NCBI GenBank assembly: GCA_025451045.1
Contig: JANWLD010000003.1
Coordinates: 133,690-197,689, forward strand
DNA from: Candidatus Saccharimonadales bacterium
GTDB lineage: Bacteria; Patescibacteriota; Saccharimonadia; Saccharimonadales; 2-12-FULL-41-12
DNA: 64,000 bases
Direction of reading: 5' to 3'
How positions within the stretch are numbered: the first letter of the stretch is position 1; each line of letters begins with the position of its first letter. Below, one piece after another: positions 11,088 to 46,579 of this stretch. The translations under genes were made by a program, and so were the position numbers. A model generated the notes under the pieces. The model ran no database searches and had not been told where the DNA came from. It saw nothing but the letters and a program-made list of their open reading frames with translations.

Positions 11088-12377
11088 CTAACTGTCTTTG
11101 AAGAGGAGGTCGAGGTATTTGGTGCCGGTGAATGGTATCTTCTGTTTGACGATATGTTTGCCTTTGAGTGTGTTGAGCGAGTGGATGACGAAGTTGCCAT
11201 AGCGTTGGTTGAGTTCGTCTACCGCTTCGGTTAGCCATTCCTGCTTATTTACCTCTTCAAACAGGCTGGGTTGATTTCTGGTAGTCGGCGTCAGGTTGTA
11301 ACATGTTATCCCCATGATGGTCAGGTTGGTATGCCGCGGACGAGCTTGGAAAAGCTTTAGCGCCCGAGCGTAAATTTCTTTGTCGGTATAAAAACTTTCT
11401 TTGTAGGTACGCTTGGCGTGCCAGCGCTCGCCGGTTGCTAATCCGGCCCAGACTACTATGCTGCGGGCATCAGCGCCGTTGTATCGTAGTTTCTTGCCGG
11501 TAGTTTCGCATAGATAGTGAAAGCGTGGCAGAAGCTCCTCGTCCTTGTTGGTTCGCTTATCCAGCGCGAATTGTCGGCCCACCTGCCCTAACCGTGTCGG
11601 TTCATCATCTACTTCATAACCGCGCAGGCGCTGATACCATTCATCACCAACGATTCCATGAAAGACTAATCTGCGCAGAGTATCGGCGCTAGCGTTTAAA
11701 AAATCCAGGGGCGTGAAGATATCGACAGAATTCAACCGGGCTTTGTAATGTCTGGCTATTCCCGGCAAGTCGGTCAGCTCCAGCGAATCATAAATTTCCA
11801 TAAGATTTGTGTGGTCGATGGTGTCCAGCCCGTCCGGTTTGTGAAGGCTGGCTGCCGTTTTGGCCAAAAAGCGATTCTGGCCGATACCGATATTGACCTT
11901 TATCCAATGCCCCAGCTCGCTTTTAAGCCGGGCTTTTATCCCCAGGGCAATTTCATGAAGCGGACGCGGATTAACTATGTTTCGAGTGCCATGAAAATCA
12001 ATTAACCCCTCATCTATACTGCGCATTTTTACGTTCGGCGAATAGCTTTTCATAATATTTGCCAGCTTTTGGTGAACATAAAGATATTTGGGCGGGTCGG
12101 TTTCAAGCAGTACCAGCTCTGGTACGAGTTGTCTGGCTTCAATAAGTCCCATGCCGACTTTCACCCCGCGGTTCTTGGCTTCGTAGCTGGCGGCGATAAT
12201 GCAGCAATTTTTGGAAATGCGGTTGGTCATGCCAAGCGGTTTTCCCCGCAAGCTCGGCCTTGCCTGCTGTTCGGTCATAGCGAACGCGCTGTTGAGATCG
12301 ATATGCATGATTTGTGCCGGCTCTCTACTAATCGGCAGATGCCCCCATTTCAAGTCTTGCGAGCGCTGGGTTTTCAT
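11088..12377 (-). CDS. Y-family (DinB/ImpB-type) translesion DNA polymerase
   Basis: IMHIDLNSAFAMTEQ and SIDEGLIDF catalytic motifs; start set at MKTQRS, which restores an ATGA overlap with the upstream ORF once the inserted element is removed (track ORF extends to 12407). Confidence 0.85.
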   Translation of the reverse strand: MKTQRSQDLKWGHLPISREPAQIMHIDLNSAFAMTEQQARPSLRGKPLGMTNRISKNCCIIAASYEAKNRGVKVGMGLIEARQLVPELVLLETDPPKYLYVHQKLANIMKSYSPNVKMRSIDEGLIDFHGTRNIVNPRPLHEIALGIKARLKSELGHWIKVNIGIGQNRFLAKTAASLHKPDGLDTIDHTNLMEIYDSLELTDLPGIARHYKARLNSVDIFTPLDFLNASADTLRRLVFHGIVGDEWYQRLRGYEVDDEPTRLGQVGRQFALDKRTNKDEELLPRFHYLCETTGKKLRYNGADARSIVVWAGLATGERWHAKRTYKESFYTDKEIYARALKLFQARPRHTNLTIMGITCYNLTPTTRNQPSLFEEVNKQEWLTEAVDELNQRYGNFVIHSLNTLKGKHIVKQKIPFTGTKYLDLLFKDS

Positions 12378-12443
12378 CCCGTAGTGAGCCTCCAAGTTGC
12401 TACGCAAAAGTCCAACGAAAGTTCTTGGAGATCTACTACGGGA
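12378..12443 (-). mobile_element. Palindromic insertion element, copy C (MITE/PATE-like)
   Basis: Minus strand reads TCCCGTAGTAGATC...GGCTCACTACGGG, flanked by 5-bp direct repeat TTCAT (12373-12377, 12444-12448). Stem is 10 bp, then an AGAU/GCUC internal loop, then 7 bp (CTCCAAG/CTTGGAG). Confidence 0.55.
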
Positions 12444-12444
12444 T

Positions 12445-12720
12445 TCATGACTCGCCCTCGATTATTGTTACCAGCTTCCAAGTAAGCATCTCGGCGTCGA
12501 ATTCCAGCCGGTAATCATTTGCCCCGTCGCTCATGTCAAAAACATGTACCATTCGCTGTCCCTTAGTCGTCGGGTGGCGCAGACCAAGCTCGGTAAAGGC
12601 TATTTCCTTTTTGCCCCACCGCATCTTAACAGGCATTATCATATAAGCCGGATCCCCGTGGGATGCGAACCGGGTTATGACTTCTACCCTGTCGTTTATC
12701 TCTATAAAATTCATATACAA
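12445..12720 (-). CDS. Hypothetical 91-aa protein, first gene of the polymerase cassette
   Basis: ORF directly upstream of and co-oriented with the polymerase; originally overlapped its start (ATGA); no motif recognised. Confidence 0.55.
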   Translation of the reverse strand: MYMNFIEINDRVEVITRFASHGDPAYMIMPVKMRWGKKEIAFTELGLRHPTTKGQRMVHVFDMSDGANDYRLEFDAEMLTWKLVTIIEGES

Positions 12721-28353: not shown

Positions 28354-28382
28354 ACCTTACGCCTCTCTGTTAATGTTGTCAA
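28354..28382 (-). promoter_or_regulatory. Putative promoter of the Leu/Ile/Val leader, with its -35 overlapping the upstream stop codon
   Basis: TTGACA (28377-28382, contains the TGA stop of the 528-aa gene), 17-nt spacer, TAAGGT (28354-28359), 6 nt, ATG. Confidence 0.4.
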
Positions 28383-29965
28383 GCAGCTTTCTTAGCTTCA
28401 GCTTTTTGGACTCGTTCTTCGGCACGGTCAATTACATTGACAGCATGCATCAAAGCCTCAACTCCAGCTCTTTCTGAAACTTTTGATTTGGCGTGGGTGT
28501 CTATTTCGTATCCGTTATGTTTGACGGTCGCGAATATTCTGACCGCAGCATCTGAACCTTCTTCCAGATCATCAACGTGCCAGCCGCCAATATCAAACTC
28601 AAAACCTACGATAAACTGCATCACCTGCTTTGCGGCATCTACTACGCCGCCTTCTGATTTGACAGTCTTTTTCTGTCCGTTGATGGTGAGGGTTGCCTCG
28701 CAAATCCCCTCTGTGTCTCCGCTGAAAGAGAAAGTCTCAAGATTGAACTTGTCTTCCATCTTCTCCCCGGTCACTCCGCTAGCAAGTTTTTCGAGGTCAT
28801 TGTGGCCGAGATTTCTGTCTTCATTTGTTGAGAGGTCTTTAACAGCTTCCGTTACCCTCAATAGTTCATCGTCACCCACATTTACATTTAGTCTGGAAAG
28901 TTCGTATCGGACCCCGGCTTTGCCGCTTTGGTCATTTATCTTGAACTCAAAAGGCTTATCAAAACCGAATGTCGAAGAAGGAAAGTTCTTAAAGGTTCCC
29001 TCGTCTTTGATTACGCCGTCCTGATGCATGCCGGAACCGTGCACATAGCTTTTGCGGCCAATGAACGGTTGAGTTTCTGCAACACGTACGCCAAGTGCCC
29101 GCGGCGCTACGCTATGGGTCAGATTACGCAATTTCAACGGGTCGACATTTGTCCTAAGACCCAGTTCTGGCTGGACGGCTATATTACCGACCACCAGTTC
29201 TAAAGGAGTGTTGCCATTGCGCTCACCGACTCCGCCGATTGTTACCTCAACCTGTTCGGCACCGCCGAAACGCAAGGCATCCACGCTATTCATTACCGAT
29301 TGCCCCAAGTCATTGTGGCAATGGGCTGCGATGACTACATCTTTAAAGCCCTGGCTGTCCAGTTCTTCACGTACTGCCAATAGTCTTTCGGAGTATTCTC
29401 TTGGCAACATAGCCCCTACGGTATCAGGAAGCATCATAGTTGTTGCACCAGTGTTGGCTACGGCAAGAACCGTTTTTTTCAAAAACTCCAAGTCAGCCCT
29501 TGTTGAATCTTCAAACGAGAATTCTACGTCATGCGTATGTTCCTTCGCCTGTTTGGTTGATTTAACTGCGAGTTCAAGCAGGCTTTTTCTGCCCATGCCG
29601 AGACGTTCTTTTATGTGCAAATCACTGACCGGCGCGCAAACGTTAATCCGAGCCCTATCACCGGCCGGTTCCAACGCCCGGCCGGCTTGTTCTATATCTT
29701 CAGGCAGTGTTCGAGCAAAAGCGGCTATGATAGGACCGTTTACTTTATCTGCGATATTTCGAACGGTTGCAAAATTGCCGCGGCTGGATCCGGGAAAACC
29801 GGCTTCAATCACATCCGTACCGGCTTCCGCCAAGCTTTCGGCAATGTATAAGGCGTTTTCCTTATTGGCGCTTGCATCGGGTGATTGGACTCCGTCGCGA
29901 AGCGTGGTATCAAAAATTATCACATTGGTTGGTTCTTTAAGTTGTTCTCCGCCTTGCTCTCTCAT
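28379..29965 (-). CDS. LeuA/CimA-family 2-alkylmalate synthase, 528 aa (citramalate synthase inferred from its Ile leader)
   Basis: FDTTLRDGVQS, HCHNDLG, and a C-terminal LeuA-dimer-type regulatory domain. Confidence 0.88.
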   Translation of the reverse strand: MREQGGEQLKEPTNVIIFDTTLRDGVQSPDASANKENALYIAESLAEAGTDVIEAGFPGSSRGNFATVRNIADKVNGPIIAAFARTLPEDIEQAGRALEPAGDRARINVCAPVSDLHIKERLGMGRKSLLELAVKSTKQAKEHTHDVEFSFEDSTRADLEFLKKTVLAVANTGATTMMLPDTVGAMLPREYSERLLAVREELDSQGFKDVVIAAHCHNDLGQSVMNSVDALRFGGAEQVEVTIGGVGERNGNTPLELVVGNIAVQPELGLRTNVDPLKLRNLTHSVAPRALGVRVAETQPFIGRKSYVHGSGMHQDGVIKDEGTFKNFPSSTFGFDKPFEFKINDQSGKAGVRYELSRLNVNVGDDELLRVTEAVKDLSTNEDRNLGHNDLEKLASGVTGEKMEDKFNLETFSFSGDTEGICEATLTINGQKKTVKSEGGVVDAAKQVMQFIVGFEFDIGGWHVDDLEEGSDAAVRIFATVKHNGYEIDTHAKSKVSERAGVEALMHAVNVIDRAEERVQKAEAKKAA

Positions 29966-30130: not shown

Positions 30131-31981
30131 TTATTTATAATATGAACTTTGGAACATCTTTGTCATGGATCTTTTATGTATTTCTCTTTGGTGGCGCCAT
30201 TCAGCCCTTTTTATAAGGTTAACTGCTTTGATATAGGCGTGGATGGTGGCGTTGTTCAGGCTGGTGCCTTCGCTGTATGCAGTTACGGTCACGCCTTTAT
30301 AAGCCACCTTGACTATAGCTCCTGCTTCAGAATCGGAGCCGCTATGAAGGGCAAAAGGTTTCGCATCTTCAATATCCCCGCTAAAGTCAAGTATCTTACC
30401 GATGGCGATTCTGGCGGCATCTACTTCCCCCTTGTTGCTCGTGGCTTTTTCTGTTCGTCTCTTGCCGTCTATATTTAAAGTTATTTTGGCATAGTCATCA
30501 TTTTCCTTCCCGTGGGATTTTGCGTGCAGTTCACTATCTGTCATTTTTATAGCGTCGTCCTGCCCGTGGAATAACTGTTCAAGCGCGAAGGCCTCGATTT
30601 CTAGATCGGTTATGGGCTGTTTCCTTGTTTTTGAAACGGTGTTGGAGTTGATAACTATTTGTTCTATATCAAGCTTAGCTACATCAAAGGCTAGATCGGT
30701 TAATCTTTTCACGGTTTCTTCCGAATTAATTACCAATTCTGACTTGTAGATGTCCGTACCGCCAAGATTGGCCCGACCAGCTTTACCTTGGTACTTCCCA
30801 TCTTCCAATATAGCCGCGACGGGATGTCCGAAGCCTCGGTTGTCTACAGCGGCGTAGGTCGCGGCCCCTCCTTTATTAATAGCATCCGAATGAACGCCCG
30901 AGCGGTGAACTATAGTATGGAAACCGGTGACGGGGGTATCGGGGTCAAGCTCCAATCCGGCGGCGTCTAATAGGCCTTCTGCTACGGCTTTCAACTTGGT
31001 TGTATCCACCGTAATTACTACGGGCGCGGCAAACTCATCCCGATCGGTCAGAACGTTGCGTACATAAGGCGCTAAATACATATTGCCGTTGCGTTCGCCT
31101 TTGCCGGGAGCGCTGACTGACTCCACTTGAAAGTCCGGTATAGCTGAACTTCTTGCTAACGCGGCGTTTATTACCGCATGCATTGAAGATATGGTGTTTT
31201 GAACGGCTCTCTGGCCATCATCGTGGTTGTGGCTCGATATCGTAATCTCTTCCACCCTGCCTTCGTCAATCATCCAGTTTGTCGCGGCGTCGAATATTTT
31301 GGCCATGCGGATAGGACTGGCAGCTCCTAGAGTGTCGGGCAGGTTAATTACATTTATATCTTCCTGCAGTGCGGTTCTGACTGCTCTTTCTAAGAAGACC
31401 ATATCAGTTGTAGAAGCTGCTTCGCAGGAAAACTCTACCGTACCATCAGGTCCTATTGCATCTCGGGCTCTGCGTATACTGTCCACGCCCATTTCAAGTA
31501 CTTCTTCCCTGGTCATGGCAGGGTGTTTTGCGCGCATGTGTTCTTCGGCGGTGGCGATAAATACATGTATTCCGGGTCTGTCAGCTTCTTCTACGGCTCT
31601 GGCTGCTTGCTCAATTCCTGCCGGATTAGCCAGAGTAAGTCCGGTAATGACAGGCGTCCAGATTTTTGGCGGCAAGTCTACCCAGTTACCATTTTCAATA
31701 GACTTCGGTAATATCTGGTACTGGGTTTGCCCGACTGTTCTGGCTACTTCAGCTATTTCTTCTTCATCGCCCATACTGGCTGGAAAGCCAGCTTCGATTA
31801 CGTCTACTCCCTGGCTTACTATCAACTCCGCCAGCTCGACTTTTGAGCCTTCAGGGAATTGATTCTCCTGAGGCAAAGACTGCGCCCCGTCGCGTAGCGT
31901 AGTGTCGAATATCTCTATTTTCATTGCCGCCGGATCAAATTCCGGTTTAGAAGGCAGTGTTTCTACTTGGCTTTGTATCAT
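30131..31981 (-). CDS. LeuA-family 2-isopropylmalate synthase-like enzyme, 616 aa
   Basis: FDTTLRDGAQS, SSHNHDDG (HxH) and a C-terminal LeuA-dimer-type domain; preceded by a Leu-rich leader. Confidence 0.85.
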   Translation of the reverse strand: MIQSQVETLPSKPEFDPAAMKIEIFDTTLRDGAQSLPQENQFPEGSKVELAELIVSQGVDVIEAGFPASMGDEEEIAEVARTVGQTQYQILPKSIENGNWVDLPPKIWTPVITGLTLANPAGIEQAARAVEEADRPGIHVFIATAEEHMRAKHPAMTREEVLEMGVDSIRRARDAIGPDGTVEFSCEAASTTDMVFLERAVRTALQEDINVINLPDTLGAASPIRMAKIFDAATNWMIDEGRVEEITISSHNHDDGQRAVQNTISSMHAVINAALARSSAIPDFQVESVSAPGKGERNGNMYLAPYVRNVLTDRDEFAAPVVITVDTTKLKAVAEGLLDAAGLELDPDTPVTGFHTIVHRSGVHSDAINKGGAATYAAVDNRGFGHPVAAILEDGKYQGKAGRANLGGTDIYKSELVINSEETVKRLTDLAFDVAKLDIEQIVINSNTVSKTRKQPITDLEIEAFALEQLFHGQDDAIKMTDSELHAKSHGKENDDYAKITLNIDGKRRTEKATSNKGEVDAARIAIGKILDFSGDIEDAKPFALHSGSDSEAGAIVKVAYKGVTVTAYSEGTSLNNATIHAYIKAVNLIKRAEWRHQREIHKRSMTKMFQSSYYK

Positions 31982-32063: not shown

Positions 32064-32141
32064 CTAGGCTTCAACCATGCTGAAGCACAGCCCTTTAAGG
32101 CTGAGTAGGAGGTCCAAGTGCTTCGCTATGTATGAAACCAT
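32064..32141 (-). CDS. Leu-rich leader peptide MVSYIAKHLDLLLSLKGLCFSMVEA
   Basis: 26-codon ORF; 6 Leu, clustered as LDLLLSLKGL; its last codons GGUUGAAGCCU(AG) are an 11-nt perfect complement of the terminator 5' arm plus loop. Confidence 0.72.
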   Translation of the reverse strand: MVSYIAKHLDLLLSLKGLCFSMVEA

Positions 32142-32150
32142 ATCAAAATA

Positions 32151-32179
32151 ACGATAACCCGCTTTAGGTCTTTTGTCAA
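32151..32179 (-). promoter_or_regulatory. Putative promoter of the Leu leader
   Basis: TTGACA (32174-32179), 17-nt spacer, TATCGT (32151-32156), 9 nt, ATG. Confidence 0.5.
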
Positions 32180-32180
32180 A

Positions 32181-32273
32181 CCCCGTAGTGAGCTTTCGTG
32201 ACTCTCTCGGCCAAGTGGCCGGGAAACTTTAGCCGCCCCTTTGGGCGGCTAAACTCGAAAGTCTACTACAGGG
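32181..32273 (-). mobile_element. Palindromic insertion element, copy A
   Basis: Minus strand reads CCCTGTAGTAGAC...GCTCACTACGGGG, flanked by 5-bp direct repeat TCAAA (32176-32180, 32274-32278). Inner stem TTTCG/CGAAA; the interior carries the hairpin TTTAGCCGCCC-AAAG-GGGCGGCTAAA (32228-32253). Confidence 0.55.
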
Positions 32274-32987
32274 TCAAACCAGTTTGTATTCACCGTCTGA
32301 TTCTTCAAGATGATAAACTTGGCTTTTGCGCTCAATGATTATCGGCCACTTTTTGGCTTTTGCATGTTCAAGCAGGGTTTTGTTAGGGTTGAAGGCTATG
32401 GGTTTCTCAACCAGTTCCAACATTGGTATATCACCCTCGGTATCGCCGACTCCTATGCTTCCTTCCAGCGACAAACCTTTCGCGTCAATAATTTTTTGCA
32501 AGGTCTTGCCCTTCGCCCCTGCCGGGAAGCTGGCATAGCCGCCGAATTTATCGCCAGACTTTTTGTATTTGGTACCGGTCCATTCGTCAAAACCGTAATA
32601 TTTGGAAACTTTTTCAACTATTTCGTACTGCGAGCCGGAAATCGCTATCAGATAGTATCCTTTGTCTTTCAGCTCAGCTACCAAGTCGCGCGTGTAGGTA
32701 TAGACTTGGTCTTTATATTTTGCGAATACTTTGTCGACTGCTTTAGAAAATACGGATATATTCAGCTGGCTTACGTGCTTGTCGAATATCTCAATCGATT
32801 TATTCGCGTAGTTCTCGTAGGCTTTTTCCGAGCTGCGGGCTTTCCAGGAATCAAACAGGTTATGTACTTCCCGGTAATCTTCATTATCTATCAGTCCTTC
32901 GATTGCCAGTTCATAGAAAACGGCCATGAAAAGCTGCCAGCGGATAAGCGTTCCGTCAAAATCAAACACCGCAAACCTTTTGCTCAT
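32274..32987 (-). CDS. HAD-IB family hydrolase (phosphoserine phosphatase-like)
   Basis: FDFDGTL motif I, S/T motif II region, and GVGDTEGDIPML motif IV. Confidence 0.78.
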   Translation of the reverse strand: MSKRFAVFDFDGTLIRWQLFMAVFYELAIEGLIDNEDYREVHNLFDSWKARSSEKAYENYANKSIEIFDKHVSQLNISVFSKAVDKVFAKYKDQVYTYTRDLVAELKDKGYYLIAISGSQYEIVEKVSKYYGFDEWTGTKYKKSGDKFGGYASFPAGAKGKTLQKIIDAKGLSLEGSIGVGDTEGDIPMLELVEKPIAFNPNKTLLEHAKAKKWPIIIERKSQVYHLEESDGEYKLV

Positions 32988-35545: not shown

Positions 35546-36517
35546 ATGACATTGATTATTTCAAAAGACGGGAAAGATGCTCGACGCCTAAATCCAACCC
35601 AGATAGACAAAGAAGATTATCTTCAACAATATATTTATGACAACCCTGATGCGGTGCCAGTCTATGAAATTGATGAGGACATCCGTTTACTTATTCTGGC
35701 CCGGGAATTTGGCACGGCCAGCGGGCCGATTGATGCACTTGGTATAGACCAGCATGGCGATATTTACTTGATTGAAACAAAGCTATACAAGAATCCTGAT
35801 AAACGCACTGTCGTTGCTCAAGTACTTGATTACGGAGCCTCGCTTTGGCGGAGTTCTATAGATTTTAATGACTTCACGTTGCAACTGGATAAGCATGTTG
35901 CAAAACAGTTTAACGCAAGCCTGATTGAAAAACTTCAAGAATTTTTCGACCTTGATGATAATGCTACTGATTCACTGCTGGACAATATGAAATCAAATCT
36001 TGCTGGTGGCACCTTCAAGTTTGTGGTGTTGATGGATAACCTGGAGCGTCGGCTCAAAGACCTGATCCTGTTTGTTAATCGCAATAGCCAGTTTGATGTC
36101 TACGCGGTTGAACTTGAATATTATAAACATCAGGATTTTGAAATTATTATTCCGAAGCTGTACGGAGCTGAGATTAAAAAAGAGGTGACCGGGACTAGGA
36201 TTTCTCAGCGGACGCTAACTGTGGAAGAATTCTGGGGTGGGCTGGCTGGTAATGTTCCTGCAGAGCAATTCGATGCATTAAAATCGCTGATAGAAAATCT
36301 CATCTCAAAAGCAGATGAGGTAAGGACGGGCACTAAAAGCATTGGATTGGTTTTTAATAAGTTTACTGATAACAAACCTCTGTTCGGTTTTTACACTGCC
36401 GGAAGTGTATCGCTAAATTTTGGACATATAATCCAACAGGAAAAGAAAGAGTTGCTTCAATCACTGCTTAAAAAGTACCTGCCTGAGGTCTGGAAAATAC
36501 CGAAGTTTCAAAGATAA
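35546..36517 (+). CDS. PD-(D/E)xK (NucS/DUF91-like) nuclease-fold protein with an uncharacterised C-terminal domain
   Basis: N-terminal pattern E..L...I.....REF....GPIDALGID..GDIYLIETK gives D...E.K catalytic-type spacing; no match recognised for the C-terminal 220 aa. Confidence 0.55.
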   Translation: MTLIISKDGKDARRLNPTQIDKEDYLQQYIYDNPDAVPVYEIDEDIRLLILAREFGTASGPIDALGIDQHGDIYLIETKLYKNPDKRTVVAQVLDYGASLWRSSIDFNDFTLQLDKHVAKQFNASLIEKLQEFFDLDDNATDSLLDNMKSNLAGGTFKFVVLMDNLERRLKDLILFVNRNSQFDVYAVELEYYKHQDFEIIIPKLYGAEIKKEVTGTRISQRTLTVEEFWGGLAGNVPAEQFDALKSLIENLISKADEVRTGTKSIGLVFNKFTDNKPLFGFYTAGSVSLNFGHIIQQEKKELLQSLLKKYLPEVWKIPKFQR

Positions 36518-38266: not shown

Positions 38267-38356
38267 TGGCGGAGAGAACAGGATTTGAACCTGCGAGAGA
38301 CTTGCGCCTCAACACGCTTTCCAAGCGTGCGCCTTAAACCACTCGGCCACCTCTCC
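38267..38356 (-). tRNA. tRNA-Ser (anticodon GGA), long variable arm, CCA encoded
   Basis: Reverse complement: GGAGAGG...CACGC-TTGGAAA-GCGTG...GCAGG-TTCAAAT-CCTGT-TCTCTCC-G-CCA. Confidence 0.9.
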
Positions 38357-38414
38357 TTAGTGTGAATGTCAGATAAATAAATTATAGCGAAAAAAGGTGT
38401 AAAAAACACCTTGC

Positions 38415-38486
38415 CCCGTAGTAGACTTTTCATTGGTCAAACCGGTAATTTTGAGGCCAAAATTATATGAAAAGCTCACTACGGGG
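38415..38486 (+). mobile_element. Palindromic insertion element, copy B
   Basis: Plus strand reads CCCGTAGTAGAC...GCTCACTACGGGG, flanked by 5-bp direct repeat CTTGC (38410-38414, 38487-38491). Inner stem TTTTCAT/ATGAAAA. Confidence 0.55.
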
Positions 38487-38603
38487 CTTGCAAGCAGTAG
38501 ACAGAACAACGTAAAATATTATTTAACTGGCCTCACCCTCTCGCGCTTTAACGCTTGCGTTTGCCGTCGGGCTGGTTTTAGACAACCTTAATAAACAAAA
38601 CCC

Positions 38604-44439: not shown

Positions 44440-45468
44440 ATGACTGACAAGACTTCCGACTACAAAATTGCGACTCTTGGGAGCCATTCCGCGCTTCAGA
44501 TACTAAAAGGCGCGCGCGACGAAGGCTTTAAAACAATGATAATCGCCCTCAAGGGACGGACTCAGCCGTATGAGTCTTTCAAAGTTGCCGATGAGATAAT
44601 TGAGCTGGAATCATTCAAGGACCTCCCCGGTTTGGAACAGCGGCTGATTGATGAGAATGTGATTTTAGTACCGCACGGCTCATTTTTTAGCGCCTATACC
44701 GATTTGGAGGCATTAAACCAATCCGACGCGCTTTACTTCGGTAATAAAAAGATTTTGCCATGGGAACAAAGCCGGACTAAACAGCGTGAATGGCTGAAAA
44801 AAGCCGGACTGACCCTGCCGAAGATTTATGATAAGCCCGAAGATATCGACGGCCCTTGCATCATCAAGTTTTATGGTGCTGGCGGCGGCAAAGGATACTT
44901 TTTGGCCAAGACCGCCGAAGAGTTTTATGAAAAAATCAAACCTCATAAAGACAAGAGATACATAATCCAGCAATACATCGTCGGAGCGCCGCTGTATGTA
45001 CATTACTTCTACTCGCCGCTAACAGGCGAGCTCGAAGTGATGAGCATGGACAAGCGTTACGAGACCAACGTCGATTCCATCGGGCGTATAAGCGCCAAAG
45101 ACCAACTGGATTTGAATATCGAAAGCTCTTACAACATCATGGGCAACCTGCCGGTGGTAGTACGCGAATCGATGTTGCCGCAGATATTTTCTATGGGTGA
45201 AGAGGTCGTTAAGGTTTCCAAGAAACTGGAGCCGGGCGGACTCACCGGACCGTTTTGCCTGGAAACAATAGTCACGCCGGAACTGGAATTTTATGTATTT
45301 GAAATTTCCGCCCGCATCGTCGCGGGGACTAATCCGTACATCAACGGCTCGCCCTATACTGATCTTCGTTACAAAGAACCAATGAGTACCGGTCGCCGCG
45401 TAGCACGAGAGATAAAGCTAGCATTAGAAAGTGATGAAATAGAAAAGGTTTTGATAAATGGCAATTGA
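44440..45468 (+). CDS. purP: Archaeal-type 5-formaminoimidazole-4-carboxamide ribonucleotide (FAICAR) synthetase, PurP family
   Basis: IATLGSHSALQILKGARDEGFKT N-terminal signature, then an ATP-grasp region. Confidence 0.78.
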   Translation: MTDKTSDYKIATLGSHSALQILKGARDEGFKTMIIALKGRTQPYESFKVADEIIELESFKDLPGLEQRLIDENVILVPHGSFFSAYTDLEALNQSDALYFGNKKILPWEQSRTKQREWLKKAGLTLPKIYDKPEDIDGPCIIKFYGAGGGKGYFLAKTAEEFYEKIKPHKDKRYIIQQYIVGAPLYVHYFYSPLTGELEVMSMDKRYETNVDSIGRISAKDQLDLNIESSYNIMGNLPVVVRESMLPQIFSMGEEVVKVSKKLEPGGLTGPFCLETIVTPELEFYVFEISARIVAGTNPYINGSPYTDLRYKEPMSTGRRVAREIKLALESDEIEKVLINGN

Positions 45469-46579
45469 CAGCAGCAAACTACTAGACGGTTATGACTTGA
45501 ATAACATTCGCATTGCTACGCTCGGCGGACATAGCGCGCTGGACGTATGCCGCGGCGCGAAGAGCGAAGGGTTCGAAACGGTCGTTGTAGCCCAAAAAGA
45601 CCGCGCCAAGACTTTTACCGATTATTACAAAACCCGCGGTAACAAAGGCTGTGTCGACCATGTCATCTTGGTAGATGATTTCGCGGACGTAGCCAAGCCG
45701 GAAATCCAGAAACAACTACGCGAATTAAACGCGGTATTCGTACATAGCCGTTACTTTTGGGTTTACTGCGATATCAACCAGATTGAAAATGATTTTAACG
45801 TGCCGATTATCGGCAACCGGGTGCTGGTGCGCAAAGAAGAGCGCGACGAAGAAAAAAACCAGTACTTCCTACTCAAAGAAGCCGGTATAAATATCCCGAA
45901 ACAGTTTGCTGATCCAAAAGACATTGACCGTCAGGTTATCGTCAAGGCTGCCGAAGCGAACCGTAAGTATGAGCGGGCCTTTTTCTTGGTGCATAGCTAT
46001 GAAGACTATCTGGCCGAGTCCAAGAAACGTTTGGACAGCGGCGCTATAGATAAGCAGTCTTTAGACAATGCGATTATCGAAGAATTTGTTCTTGGTCCGC
46101 AATTGAACTTGAATTTCTTTTATTCGCCAGTTACGGATGAGCTGGAGCTACTGGGAACTGACACTCGCCGCCAGACTAATATAGATGGTCTCTTGCGCCT
46201 GACCGCAACTGAGCAGACTGAAGTATTGAAGCACGTCCGGCCGCAATATATCGAGAACGGACATATAGCCGTCACTATAAAAGAATCTTTGCTGGAAAAG
46301 GCATATGAAGCCGGCGAGAAGTTTGTTGAGTCGGTTGCCAAGCATTATCCGCCCGGTATGATTGGCCCGTTTGCCCTCCAAGGCGCGATTACCCCCGGCC
46401 CGCCAAAAGAAAAATTGTTTGTTTTTGACGTGAGCATGCGCATTCCCGGCAGTCCCGGTACAATGTTTACGCCCTACTCCGGCTATATGTACGGTGAAAA
46501 TATGAGCGTTGGCAAGCGCCTGGCCATGGAAGTCAAACAAGCCATAGCCGAAAATAAATTAGATCTATTAATTACTTAA
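45458..46579 (+). CDS. PurP-family paralog (second ATP-grasp formate-dependent ligase-like gene)
   Basis: IATLGGHSALDVCRGAKSEGFET; overlaps the first purP by 11 nt. Confidence 0.72.
   Translation: MAIDSSKLLDGYDLNNIRIATLGGHSALDVCRGAKSEGFETVVVAQKDRAKTFTDYYKTRGNKGCVDHVILVDDFADVAKPEIQKQLRELNAVFVHSRYFWVYCDINQIENDFNVPIIGNRVLVRKEERDEEKNQYFLLKEAGINIPKQFADPKDIDRQVIVKAAEANRKYERAFFLVHSYEDYLAESKKRLDSGAIDKQSLDNAIIEEFVLGPQLNLNFFYSPVTDELELLGTDTRRQTNIDGLLRLTATEQTEVLKHVRPQYIENGHIAVTIKESLLEKAYEAGEKFVESVAKHYPPGMIGPFALQGAITPGPPKEKLFVFDVSMRIPGSPGTMFTPYSGYMYGENMSVGKRLAMEVKQAIAENKLDLLIT

Follow-up and report, generated by a model that had tools for sequence, protein, structure and literature searches.

A family of small palindromic insertion elements in Patescibacteria, probably MITEs, and a copy that splits the overlap between a small gene and a Y-family DNA polymerase gene

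Palindromic repeats that resemble miniature inverted-repeat transposable elements (MITEs) and act as RNA hairpins include ERIC/IRU in enterobacteria, Correia/NEMIS in Neisseria, and RUP and BOX in pneumococci. Patescibacteria, with their streamlined genomes of about 1 Mb, are generally held to be poor in transposable elements. The IS1380 and piggyBac elements have 5'-CC..GG-3' termini and generate 4-bp target duplications, or 4-5 bp in the case of IS1380 (PMC10045372). The ends of ISEcp1 on plasmid pC15-1a are CCTAGATTCTACGT...ACGTGGAATTTAGG. Here we describe a family of palindromic elements from Patescibacteria, three copies of which, named A, B and C, lie in a 64,000-nt stretch of contig JANWLD010000003.1 from a Candidatus Saccharimonadales bacterium; the whole stretch is referred to as the window, and all coordinates are window positions unless a locus is named. 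Copy C lies between a small open reading frame (ORF) and the gene for a Y-family DNA polymerase (Table 1), exactly between the TGA of the former and the ATG of the latter, as had been described in an earlier note made from the sequence of the window.

On the minus strand the site reads GAGTCATGAA, followed by the element, TCCCGTAGTAGATCTCCAAG...CTTGGAGGCTCACTACGGGA, and then by TGAAAACC, the complete element being TCCCGTAGTAGATCTCCAAGAACTTTCGTTGGACTTTTGCGTAGCAACTTGGAGGCTCACTACGGGA. Copy C is an insertion that split a gene pair formerly overlapping through ATGA, since empty alleles of the site exist in relatives: five related contigs (L032-L036) carry the junction TCATGAAAAC, in which the two genes overlap by 4 nt, and their sequence, ...ATCGAGGCCGAATCATGAAAACT..., is that of the window minus the element and one TGAA. 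Deletion in silico of copy C together with one repeat gives GAGTCATGAAAACC, the same junction, and the stop/start overlap that the earlier note had expected to be restored in this way is exactly the one carried by the five contigs. Related Saccharimonadales contigs show the gene order histidine kinase, response regulator, 89-aa ORF, polymerase and transketolase, with the 89-aa protein 87-90% identical. The element had been described as 66 bp long with a 5-bp direct repeat, TTCAT; the insertion and its duplication are borne out, and the sizes are corrected to 67 bp and the 4-bp TGAA, 4 bp being also the usual length in the family. The flanks of copy C can be read as a duplicated TGAA, or as ATGAA if the terminal A is counted, and this fifth matching base is most simply taken as the element's own terminal A, which would pair with its first T; a terminal T..A pair like this one is also found in three copies from other loci (L009, L016 and L019).

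The paired ends GTAGTAGAY...GCTCACTAC occur at three places in the window, corresponding to copies C, A and B, and in none of 100 shuffled versions. All three copies fold far better than shuffles (z -3.5, -8.0 and -6.7). A covariance model of both arms found copy C, the best match at 29.4 bits, and copy B; it missed copy A, whose interior is long, and revealed no other copies in the window. The two additional copies were at the places given in the earlier note, with the same paired ends, and empty-site alleles, for which the note had proposed to look, were found in relatives for all three. Downstream of the HAD-hydrolase gene the empty sites read CATTTGACAAAAG (L094) and GTTTGACAAAAA (L095), the window having GGTTTGA, copy A and then TTTGACAAAAG; upstream of the ABC-transporter gene the empty site reads ACACCTTGCAAGCC (L095), the window having ACACCTTG, copy B and then CTTGCAAGC. 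Reduced to the exact empty junctions, these two sites are GGTTTGACAAAAG and ACACCTTGCAAGC. The presence of three copies in 64 kb, against none in about 75 kb fetched from relatives, points to a recent gain of all three by the lineage of the window. Its divergence from these copy-free relatives is that of polymerase orthologues 82% identical (without gaps in the alignment with L032) and of a HAD protein 77% identical.

Table 1. Features of the three element copies and of the split gene pair, with their window positions.
Feature	Position	Strand	Description
Element copy C	12377..12443	-	67-bp imperfect palindrome, TCCCGTAGTAGAT...GCTCACTACGGGA; absent from the orthologous site in L032-L036
Upstream duplication TGAA	12444..12447	-	Includes the TGA that ends the 89/91-aa ORF; adding 12448 gives the old coupled ATG
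Downstream duplication TGAA	12373..12376	-	Gives TG of the polymerase ATG; A at 12377 ends the element or is a fifth base of the duplication
Copy C left end	12431..12443	-	9-nt stem-1 arm TCCCGTAGT, loop AGA, then T; family consensus CCCCGTAGTAGAC
Copy C right end	12377..12389	-	G, loop CTC, then 9-nt stem-1 arm ACTACGGGA; family consensus GCTCACTACGGGG
Copy C interior	12390..12430	-	Stem 2: CTCCAAG 12430-12424 pairs with CTTGGAG 12396-12390; 27-nt loop between
Bridging ORF, 24 codons + TGA	12374..12448	-	Product MNPVVDLQELSLDFCVATWRLTTG, then stop; TGA 12376-12374 overlaps the polymerase ATG
Upstream ORF, 89/91 aa	12445..12720	-	TGA at 12447-12445; relatives start at ATG 12714, giving 89 aa
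Y-family DNA polymerase, 429 aa, intact	11088..12377	-	PF00817 and PF11799; ATG 12377-12375
Copy A, 93 bp	32181..32273	-	TTTGA flanks 32176-32180 and 32274-32278; duplication holds the TGA stop of the HAD-hydrolase gene
Copy B, 73 bp	38414..38486	+	CTTG flanks 38410-38413 and 38487-38490; between tRNA-Ser and the ABC-transporter gene

Two further structures lie close to copies A and B. Between copy A and a leuA-like gene, 32064-32141 on the minus strand, extending to about 31995, includes a 25-codon ORF, MVSYIAKHLDLLLSLKGLCFSMVEA, with a run of leucines, and beyond it a GGTTGAAGCC...GGCTTCAACC hairpin and then a T-run; the arrangement is kept in L094 (6345-6545) and L095 (10720-10930), has no match in Rfam, and looks like a leucine leader-peptide attenuator in Saccharibacteria. 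A hairpin at 38386-38412, AAGGTGT-AAAAA-ACACCTT, ends in the CTTG that is the target of copy B and, read on the minus strand as a stem followed by a T-run, looks like a terminator between the ABC-transporter promoter region and tRNA-Ser (38267-38356).

Copies were also found well beyond the window. The genome scan covered one genome per species and required both ends exactly, which inflates the apparent invariance of the ends, a bias that the extra copies found without this requirement offset only partly; the metagenome scan used the left end alone, as an 18-mer. The family ends CCCCGTAGTAGA...CTCACTACGGGG gave 32 matches in 31 genome loci and none in shuffled loci, nearly all of them in Saccharibacteria, Lloydbacteria (Parcubacteria) and unclassified metagenome-assembled genomes (MAGs) of Patescibacteria. 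Metagenomes, mainly from groundwater and soil, contributed about 44 true copies, the other left-end matches being decayed copies and some 8 chance matches in GC-rich coding DNA. No copy of the family was found in viral contigs. A match in a 'Chloroflexi' MAG (L020), located inside an ORF and having neither a second stem nor a duplication, was rejected as due to chance. The pooled set includes 82 distinct copies, 77 of them non-nested, and as far as sampled the family is confined to Patescibacteria. In several genomes (MHLP01, MHLS01, JACPKF01 and JBBTWK01) copies are found on two to three contigs, the MAG CAYWFI01 is also rich in elements, and up to three copies occur within 2.2 kb in L001. 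A 194-kb contig (L070) includes both a filled site (minus strand, 1063-1132, with TTTA duplicated) and a paralogous, matching empty site (about position 2801 of the reverse complement). Two copies in L043 (minus strand, 11824 and 13171), 1.35 kb apart, have identical flanks over at least 40 nt and are probably the result of a segmental duplication that included the element, not of two insertions.

An exact flanking repeat of at least 4 bp is present in 45 of the 77 non-nested copies (4 bp in 40 and 5 bp in 5), about 0.3 copies being expected by chance. The duplications that the earlier note had proposed to tabulate are a property of the family as well as of copy C. They sit at one fixed boundary, just outside N-CCCGTAGT...ACTACGGG-N, and a shift of either boundary abolishes the signal. 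At least 19 kinds of duplicated 4-mers were found, with a YNNR preference in which Y is first in 44 of 45 and R is last in all 45; there is an excess of G at -1 and of C at +1, so that the context is often G-YNNR-C. In about one seventh of the duplication-bearing insertions the element lies on a start or stop codon, which is restored by the duplication; this may be how genomes with very short spacers tolerate the elements.

The copies sampled share a common register, in which stem 1 (9 bp) is followed by a 3x3 mismatch, by one C-G or T.G pair and by a stem 2 of 7-9 bp; at the level of DNA this is an inverted repeat of 9 perfect bp, 3 mismatched bases and 8 bp more. The conserved ends can be written 5'-(N)CCCGTAGT-AGA...CTC-ACTACGGG(N)-3', with 12-13 nt at each end, and the shortest copy measures 34 bp and the longest 156 bp, with lengths peaking sharply at 85 bp. 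The hairpin and the second stem that the earlier note had proposed for copy C are found in this register; the 4x4 internal loop is not, its place being taken by a 3x3 loop of AGA over CUC, followed by a C-G or U.G pair. The mismatch of AGA opposite CTC (A.C, G.T, A.C) is kept in every sampled copy except L001 2425-2540, which has AGG/CTC. Stem 2 varies in sequence with its pairing kept, as the earlier note had noticed in the three window copies: seven of the eight pairs change on both sides, 93% of the cells are paired, and none of 500 shuffles reaches the score. Within the extra copies found when exact ends were not demanded, compensatory changes are also seen in stem 1, such as GTAGC/GCTAC in L001 and GTGGT/ACCAC in L025, and AGA/CTC is kept in all but the one L001 copy. 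As a sign of which strand folds, wobble pairs point both ways: the GTAGTAGA strand has U.G at position 4 and at position 13, and C.A at position 4, which would be a wobble on the other strand, is about as common.

The interiors are more variable. A three-way junction that encloses two internal hairpins is the form common in Saccharibacteria, and some hairpin modules are common to several copies, among them TATCCGC..GCGGATA and TTCCCGGCCACTTGGCCGAGA, the latter being present in window copy A; the hairpin loop CCACTTGG is conserved in the subfamily of copy A. The view of the earlier note that the interiors of the copies are unrelated does not apply to copy A, as its second hairpin and its two-hairpin layout recur in many metagenomic copies. 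Interiors are strongly structured in Saccharibacteria-type copies (median z -4.1) and unstructured in seven Lloydbacteria copies (z about 0) and in the 25 nt of copy C beyond its arms (z +0.7 against shuffles); universality is therefore limited to the ends and the inverted repeat next to them. Compared by eye, the junction and loop nucleotides fit none of the hammerhead, twister, kink-turn, bulge-helix-bulge and Y-RNA structures.

Some copies are composite. Copies in L049 (minus strand, 3927) and L084 (minus strand, 834) have the same two-hairpin interior in opposite orientations relative to the asymmetric ends, and therefore interior and ends act as separable modules. The 12-nt end modules can be stacked end to end, directly in L056 153-261 (CCCCGTAGTAGA CCCAGTAGTAGA ... 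CTCACTACGAGG CTCACTACGAGG), or around an inverted inner copy in L013 5828-5934, L014 1186-1292, L027 30-138 and L063 (minus strand, about 80-190 of the reverse complement), and a 34-nt copy is nested inside L022 at 1441-1474. In these nested and stacked arrangements the target duplication is found at the outer shell only. The stacked ends may have arisen by symmetric duplication together with an inversion between arms. In L004 one CTTG is common to a full element and a solo right end.

The explanation that we favor for these observations as a whole, with a probability of about 0.72, is that copy C is a non-autonomous transposon with terminal inverted repeats, a MITE, because it has short terminal inverted repeats, a fixed 4-bp duplication confirmed by empty sites, a palindromic target, and many dispersed non-coding relatives without coding capacity for a transposase. 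The palindromic YNNR target is as expected of a dimeric enzyme that makes a 4-bp staggered double-strand cut, and the element would be moved in trans by such an enzyme acting on double-stranded DNA. The best candidate would be a DDE transposase of the IS1380/piggyBac type, because of the CC..GG termini and the 4-bp duplications. The family has (N)CCC...GGG(N) in all copies, a feature most of which was required by the scan pattern, and, as in ISEcp1 (CCTAGATTCTACGT versus CCTAAATTCCACGT), its repeats are short and imperfect and differ by transitions (CCCCGTAGTAGAC versus CCCCGTAGTGAGC). On the other hand, the terminal sequence beyond CC could not be aligned with that of ISEcp1, TTAA is the duplicated 4-mer in none of 45 cases, unlike in piggyBac, no transposase gene with family ends was found, and the elements, at 34-156 bp, keep their pairing well past a terminal repeat of the size that a protein would bind. 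The match to IS1380/piggyBac is the best lead and a resemblance only.

Because a duplex of about 85 bp is too short to loop, we propose that the palindrome, as a cruciform or a snap-back hairpin, would bring the two ends together. In such a folded synapsis the AGA/CTC mismatch would mark which strand or end is which, and the pairing of the arms would be kept while their sequence drifts. Arm-to-arm template switching, a well-established form of mutagenesis at quasipalindromes, would keep the arms complementary without selection, and recombination between arms would explain the inverted interiors and the inverted nested copies.

Several observations weigh against identification as a MITE moved by such a transposase. 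No flanking repeat at all is found in 25 of the 77 non-nested copies, and 7 more have only 1-3 bp. End binding by a DDE enzyme leaves unexplained the compensatory changes in stem 1, the AGA/CTC asymmetry, and the stacked or inverted 12-nt modules. No HUH, DDE or recombinase protein was detected with Pfam and NCBIfam among about 55 of the 62 window ORFs of at least 70 aa, and no transposase was detected with Pfam beside the element clusters in L001 and L030. A tblastn search with the ISEcp1 transposase gave no match at E<=10 against 608 kb of fetched Patescibacteria loci, and no full-length element with family ends was present among the approximately 44 metagenome left-end matches.

Alternatively, the elements would be structure-dependent mobile hairpins with no insertion sequence ancestry, which we consider unlikely. 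Hairpins with modular 12-nt caps (NCCCGTAGTAGA / CTCACTACGGGN) would in this case be moved by a novel enzyme of the Patescibacteria that reads a cruciform or a folded strand and makes a 4-bp staggered cut; the caps would enclose almost any cargo and stack either directly, as in L056, or around an inverted copy, as in L013, L014, L027 and L063. If true, genomes regarded as nearly devoid of mobile DNA would possess a new system of transposition, with a possibly seamless and reversible excision that would toggle the coupling of operons.

A role selected by the host is rather improbable. The elements would then be structured RNAs (cis-regulatory hairpins, mRNA stabilizers or processing sites of the REP, ERIC or Correia type, or small RNAs), with mobility only as their means of spread, and selection would have favored translational control by the hairpin that covers the start of the polymerase. 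The covariation, strong both in stem 2 and within the internal hairpins, speaks for such RNAs, as do the conserved loop of the copy A subfamily, the several insertions exactly on start or stop codons, and the orthologous copies kept across species with compensatory change (L008 and L017; L012 and L025). However, template switching within palindromes could mimic covariation without selection, and the interiors of copy C and of the Lloydbacteria copies are unstructured. Between co-directional genes 9 copies are in sense and 6 in antisense orientation, an unbiased distribution that indicates no strand-specific role as RNA. No Rfam family was found even at E<=10, the matches at the elements at that level being noise of the microRNA hairpin type, and three tRNAs are the only matches of the window above the gathering threshold. 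None of its three copies is present in close relatives, so that none is needed at its site.

The elements can be compared in this respect with ERIC, Correia, RUP and BOX, which are also small non-coding imperfect palindromes in intergenic spacers, often within operons and in either orientation, co-transcribed as stable hairpins (predicted for the present family) and kept across species with structure-preserving change. ERIC, Correia and RUP duplicate TA, unlike the 4-bp YNNR of the present family. The bodies of these repeats are 100-160 bp long, align along their whole length and belong to Proteobacteria or Firmicutes, whereas the family in Patescibacteria conserves 12-13 nt per end and goes down to 34-38 bp.

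An origin from a single-strand HUH element, either a REP/REPIN mobilized by a RAYT or a derivative of IS200/IS605, had been suggested in the earlier note, and is not supported. The element would be read as a folded hairpin with AGA/CTC marking the active strand, and the near-invariant asymmetric loop would indeed tell top-strand from bottom-strand hairpins, in line with a structure kept while sequence drifts and with compensatory changes even in stem 1. REPs reportedly carry GTAG adjoining the palindrome, and the family motif has GTAG in the same place; REPs and REPINs also resemble the family in their hairpin doublets, in tandem and inverted arrangements, and in a cognate enzyme that is encoded elsewhere or not nearby. 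However, IS200/IS605 and REP/RAYT systems make no target duplication, none being reported for REPINs, and use a fixed flanking tetra- or pentanucleotide, whereas the family duplicates its target as a rule, as proven by the empty sites, with at least 19 duplicated 4-mers and a preference, symmetric as YNNR/G..C, of the kind that staggered double-strand cuts typically show. Unlike subterminal hairpins, the arms form terminal inverted repeats, and neither a RAYT nor any other Y1/HUH protein was found among the approximately 55 window ORFs scanned, which together make this origin highly unlikely.

Least probable of all is a folded site for a tyrosine recombinase of the integron/Xer type, which would equate stem 1 with the R box of attC, AGA/CTC with the spacer, stem 2 with the L box and the interior with the variable terminal structure, as the outer stem is conserved, the spacer unpaired, the inner stem conserved in structure only and the apex variable from 4 nt to branched hairpins, but the core sites RYYYAAC/GTTRRRY are absent (the family ends being CCCCGTAGT/ACTACGGGG), the copies are solitary in housekeeping intergenic spacers with no cassette arrays, no integrase was found in the window, and 4-bp duplications with simple empty sites are unlike the products of attC x attI recombination.

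Considered as MITEs, the elements form a family that is new and of an ordinary class. The literature yielded no account of repeats like these from Saccharibacteria or Patescibacteria, which is weak evidence, as subscription journals were outside the coverage. Unusual features for a MITE are the size of 34-156 bp with 12-13 conserved nt per end, the modular and stackable ends, the spread across classes of Patescibacteria, and, as far as searched, the lack of a transposase. At least three insertions entered these 64 kb in one lineage of Patescibacteria after its split from copy-free relatives, and the presence of the same 12-nt ends in Saccharibacteria and Lloydbacteria implies an active, horizontally shared mobilizing enzyme. 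As a simple sequence tag, the family also allows recent mobility and differences between strains to be followed in these uncultured organisms.

The insertion of copy C has probable consequences for the translation of the polymerase. The mRNA hairpin has a computed stability of -30.9 kcal/mol, and GGAGG as well as the A of the start codon are paired in this fold, as the earlier note had proposed in describing the start region as buried. This GGAGG, similar to a Shine-Dalgarno (SD) sequence, is located at 12393-12389 on the minus strand, 11 nt from the polymerase ATG. It is not an adaptation specific to the site but the ordinary second-stem sequence of the subfamily to which copy C belongs, being the same in L009 and having the near variants AGAGG and GAAGG in L016 and L023. 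Opening the region from -20 to +13 around the polymerase AUG was computed to require 24.5 kcal/mol in the filled site, versus 10.9 in the empty site (L032) and 12.1 after excision in silico. With some 13 kcal/mol of extra opening cost, direct initiation at the buried start is likely to be disfavored, and polymerase synthesis would no longer be started straight from the stop of the upstream ORF.

After the duplication of TGAA in TCATGAAAAC both junctions read ATGA, and as a consequence an ORF of 24 codons bridges the two genes, opening at the old coupled ATG and reading through the whole hairpin. The native SD, GAGGG (12459-12455), is still 6 nt upstream of its ATG. This bridging ORF probably relays the translational coupling: ribosomes that end the 89-aa ORF or load at the native SD would proceed through the mini-ORF, melting the hairpin, before starting anew at the polymerase ATG, a two-step relay of termination and reinitiation that would be the most likely working state of the filled site. 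The earlier note had suggested that the hairpin is opened by ribosomes finishing the upstream ORF, and the bridging ORF suggests a more specific route to the same result. By chance, about 1 of 8 cases would show an open frame in the right phase, which weighs against the relay in that the ORF could itself be due to chance, and the relay is therefore plausible rather than demonstrated. The site can be considered a natural experiment on translational coupling, in which one 4-nt overlap was converted into two overlaps split by a mini-ORF that encodes a hairpin, and in which the coupling was changed upstream of an error-prone, dosage-sensitive polymerase.

The 89-aa protein has 678 homologues and no match in Pfam, NCBIfam or PDB. 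Its ORF (12445-12714 on the minus strand; L032 5991-6260; L034 6494-6763) is kept directly upstream of the Y-family polymerase with an ATGA overlap across Saccharimonadales, and by analogy with UmuD and YolD the product may be an accessory subunit of the polymerase.

Other genes of the window include that for a 323-aa protein (35546-36514, plus strand) with a faint N-terminal match to NucS-like PD-(D/E)XK nucleases, which is not present at the matching position of L094 and may be an accessory nuclease. Two adjacent genes for HMGL-like/LeuA-type synthases (28382-29965 and 30131-31981, minus strand) and two tandem DUF1246/DUF1297 genes (44440-46576, plus strand), the latter domains being a mark of the archaeal-type PurP enzymes of purine synthesis, are an unexpected biosynthetic content for a Saccharibacteria genome.

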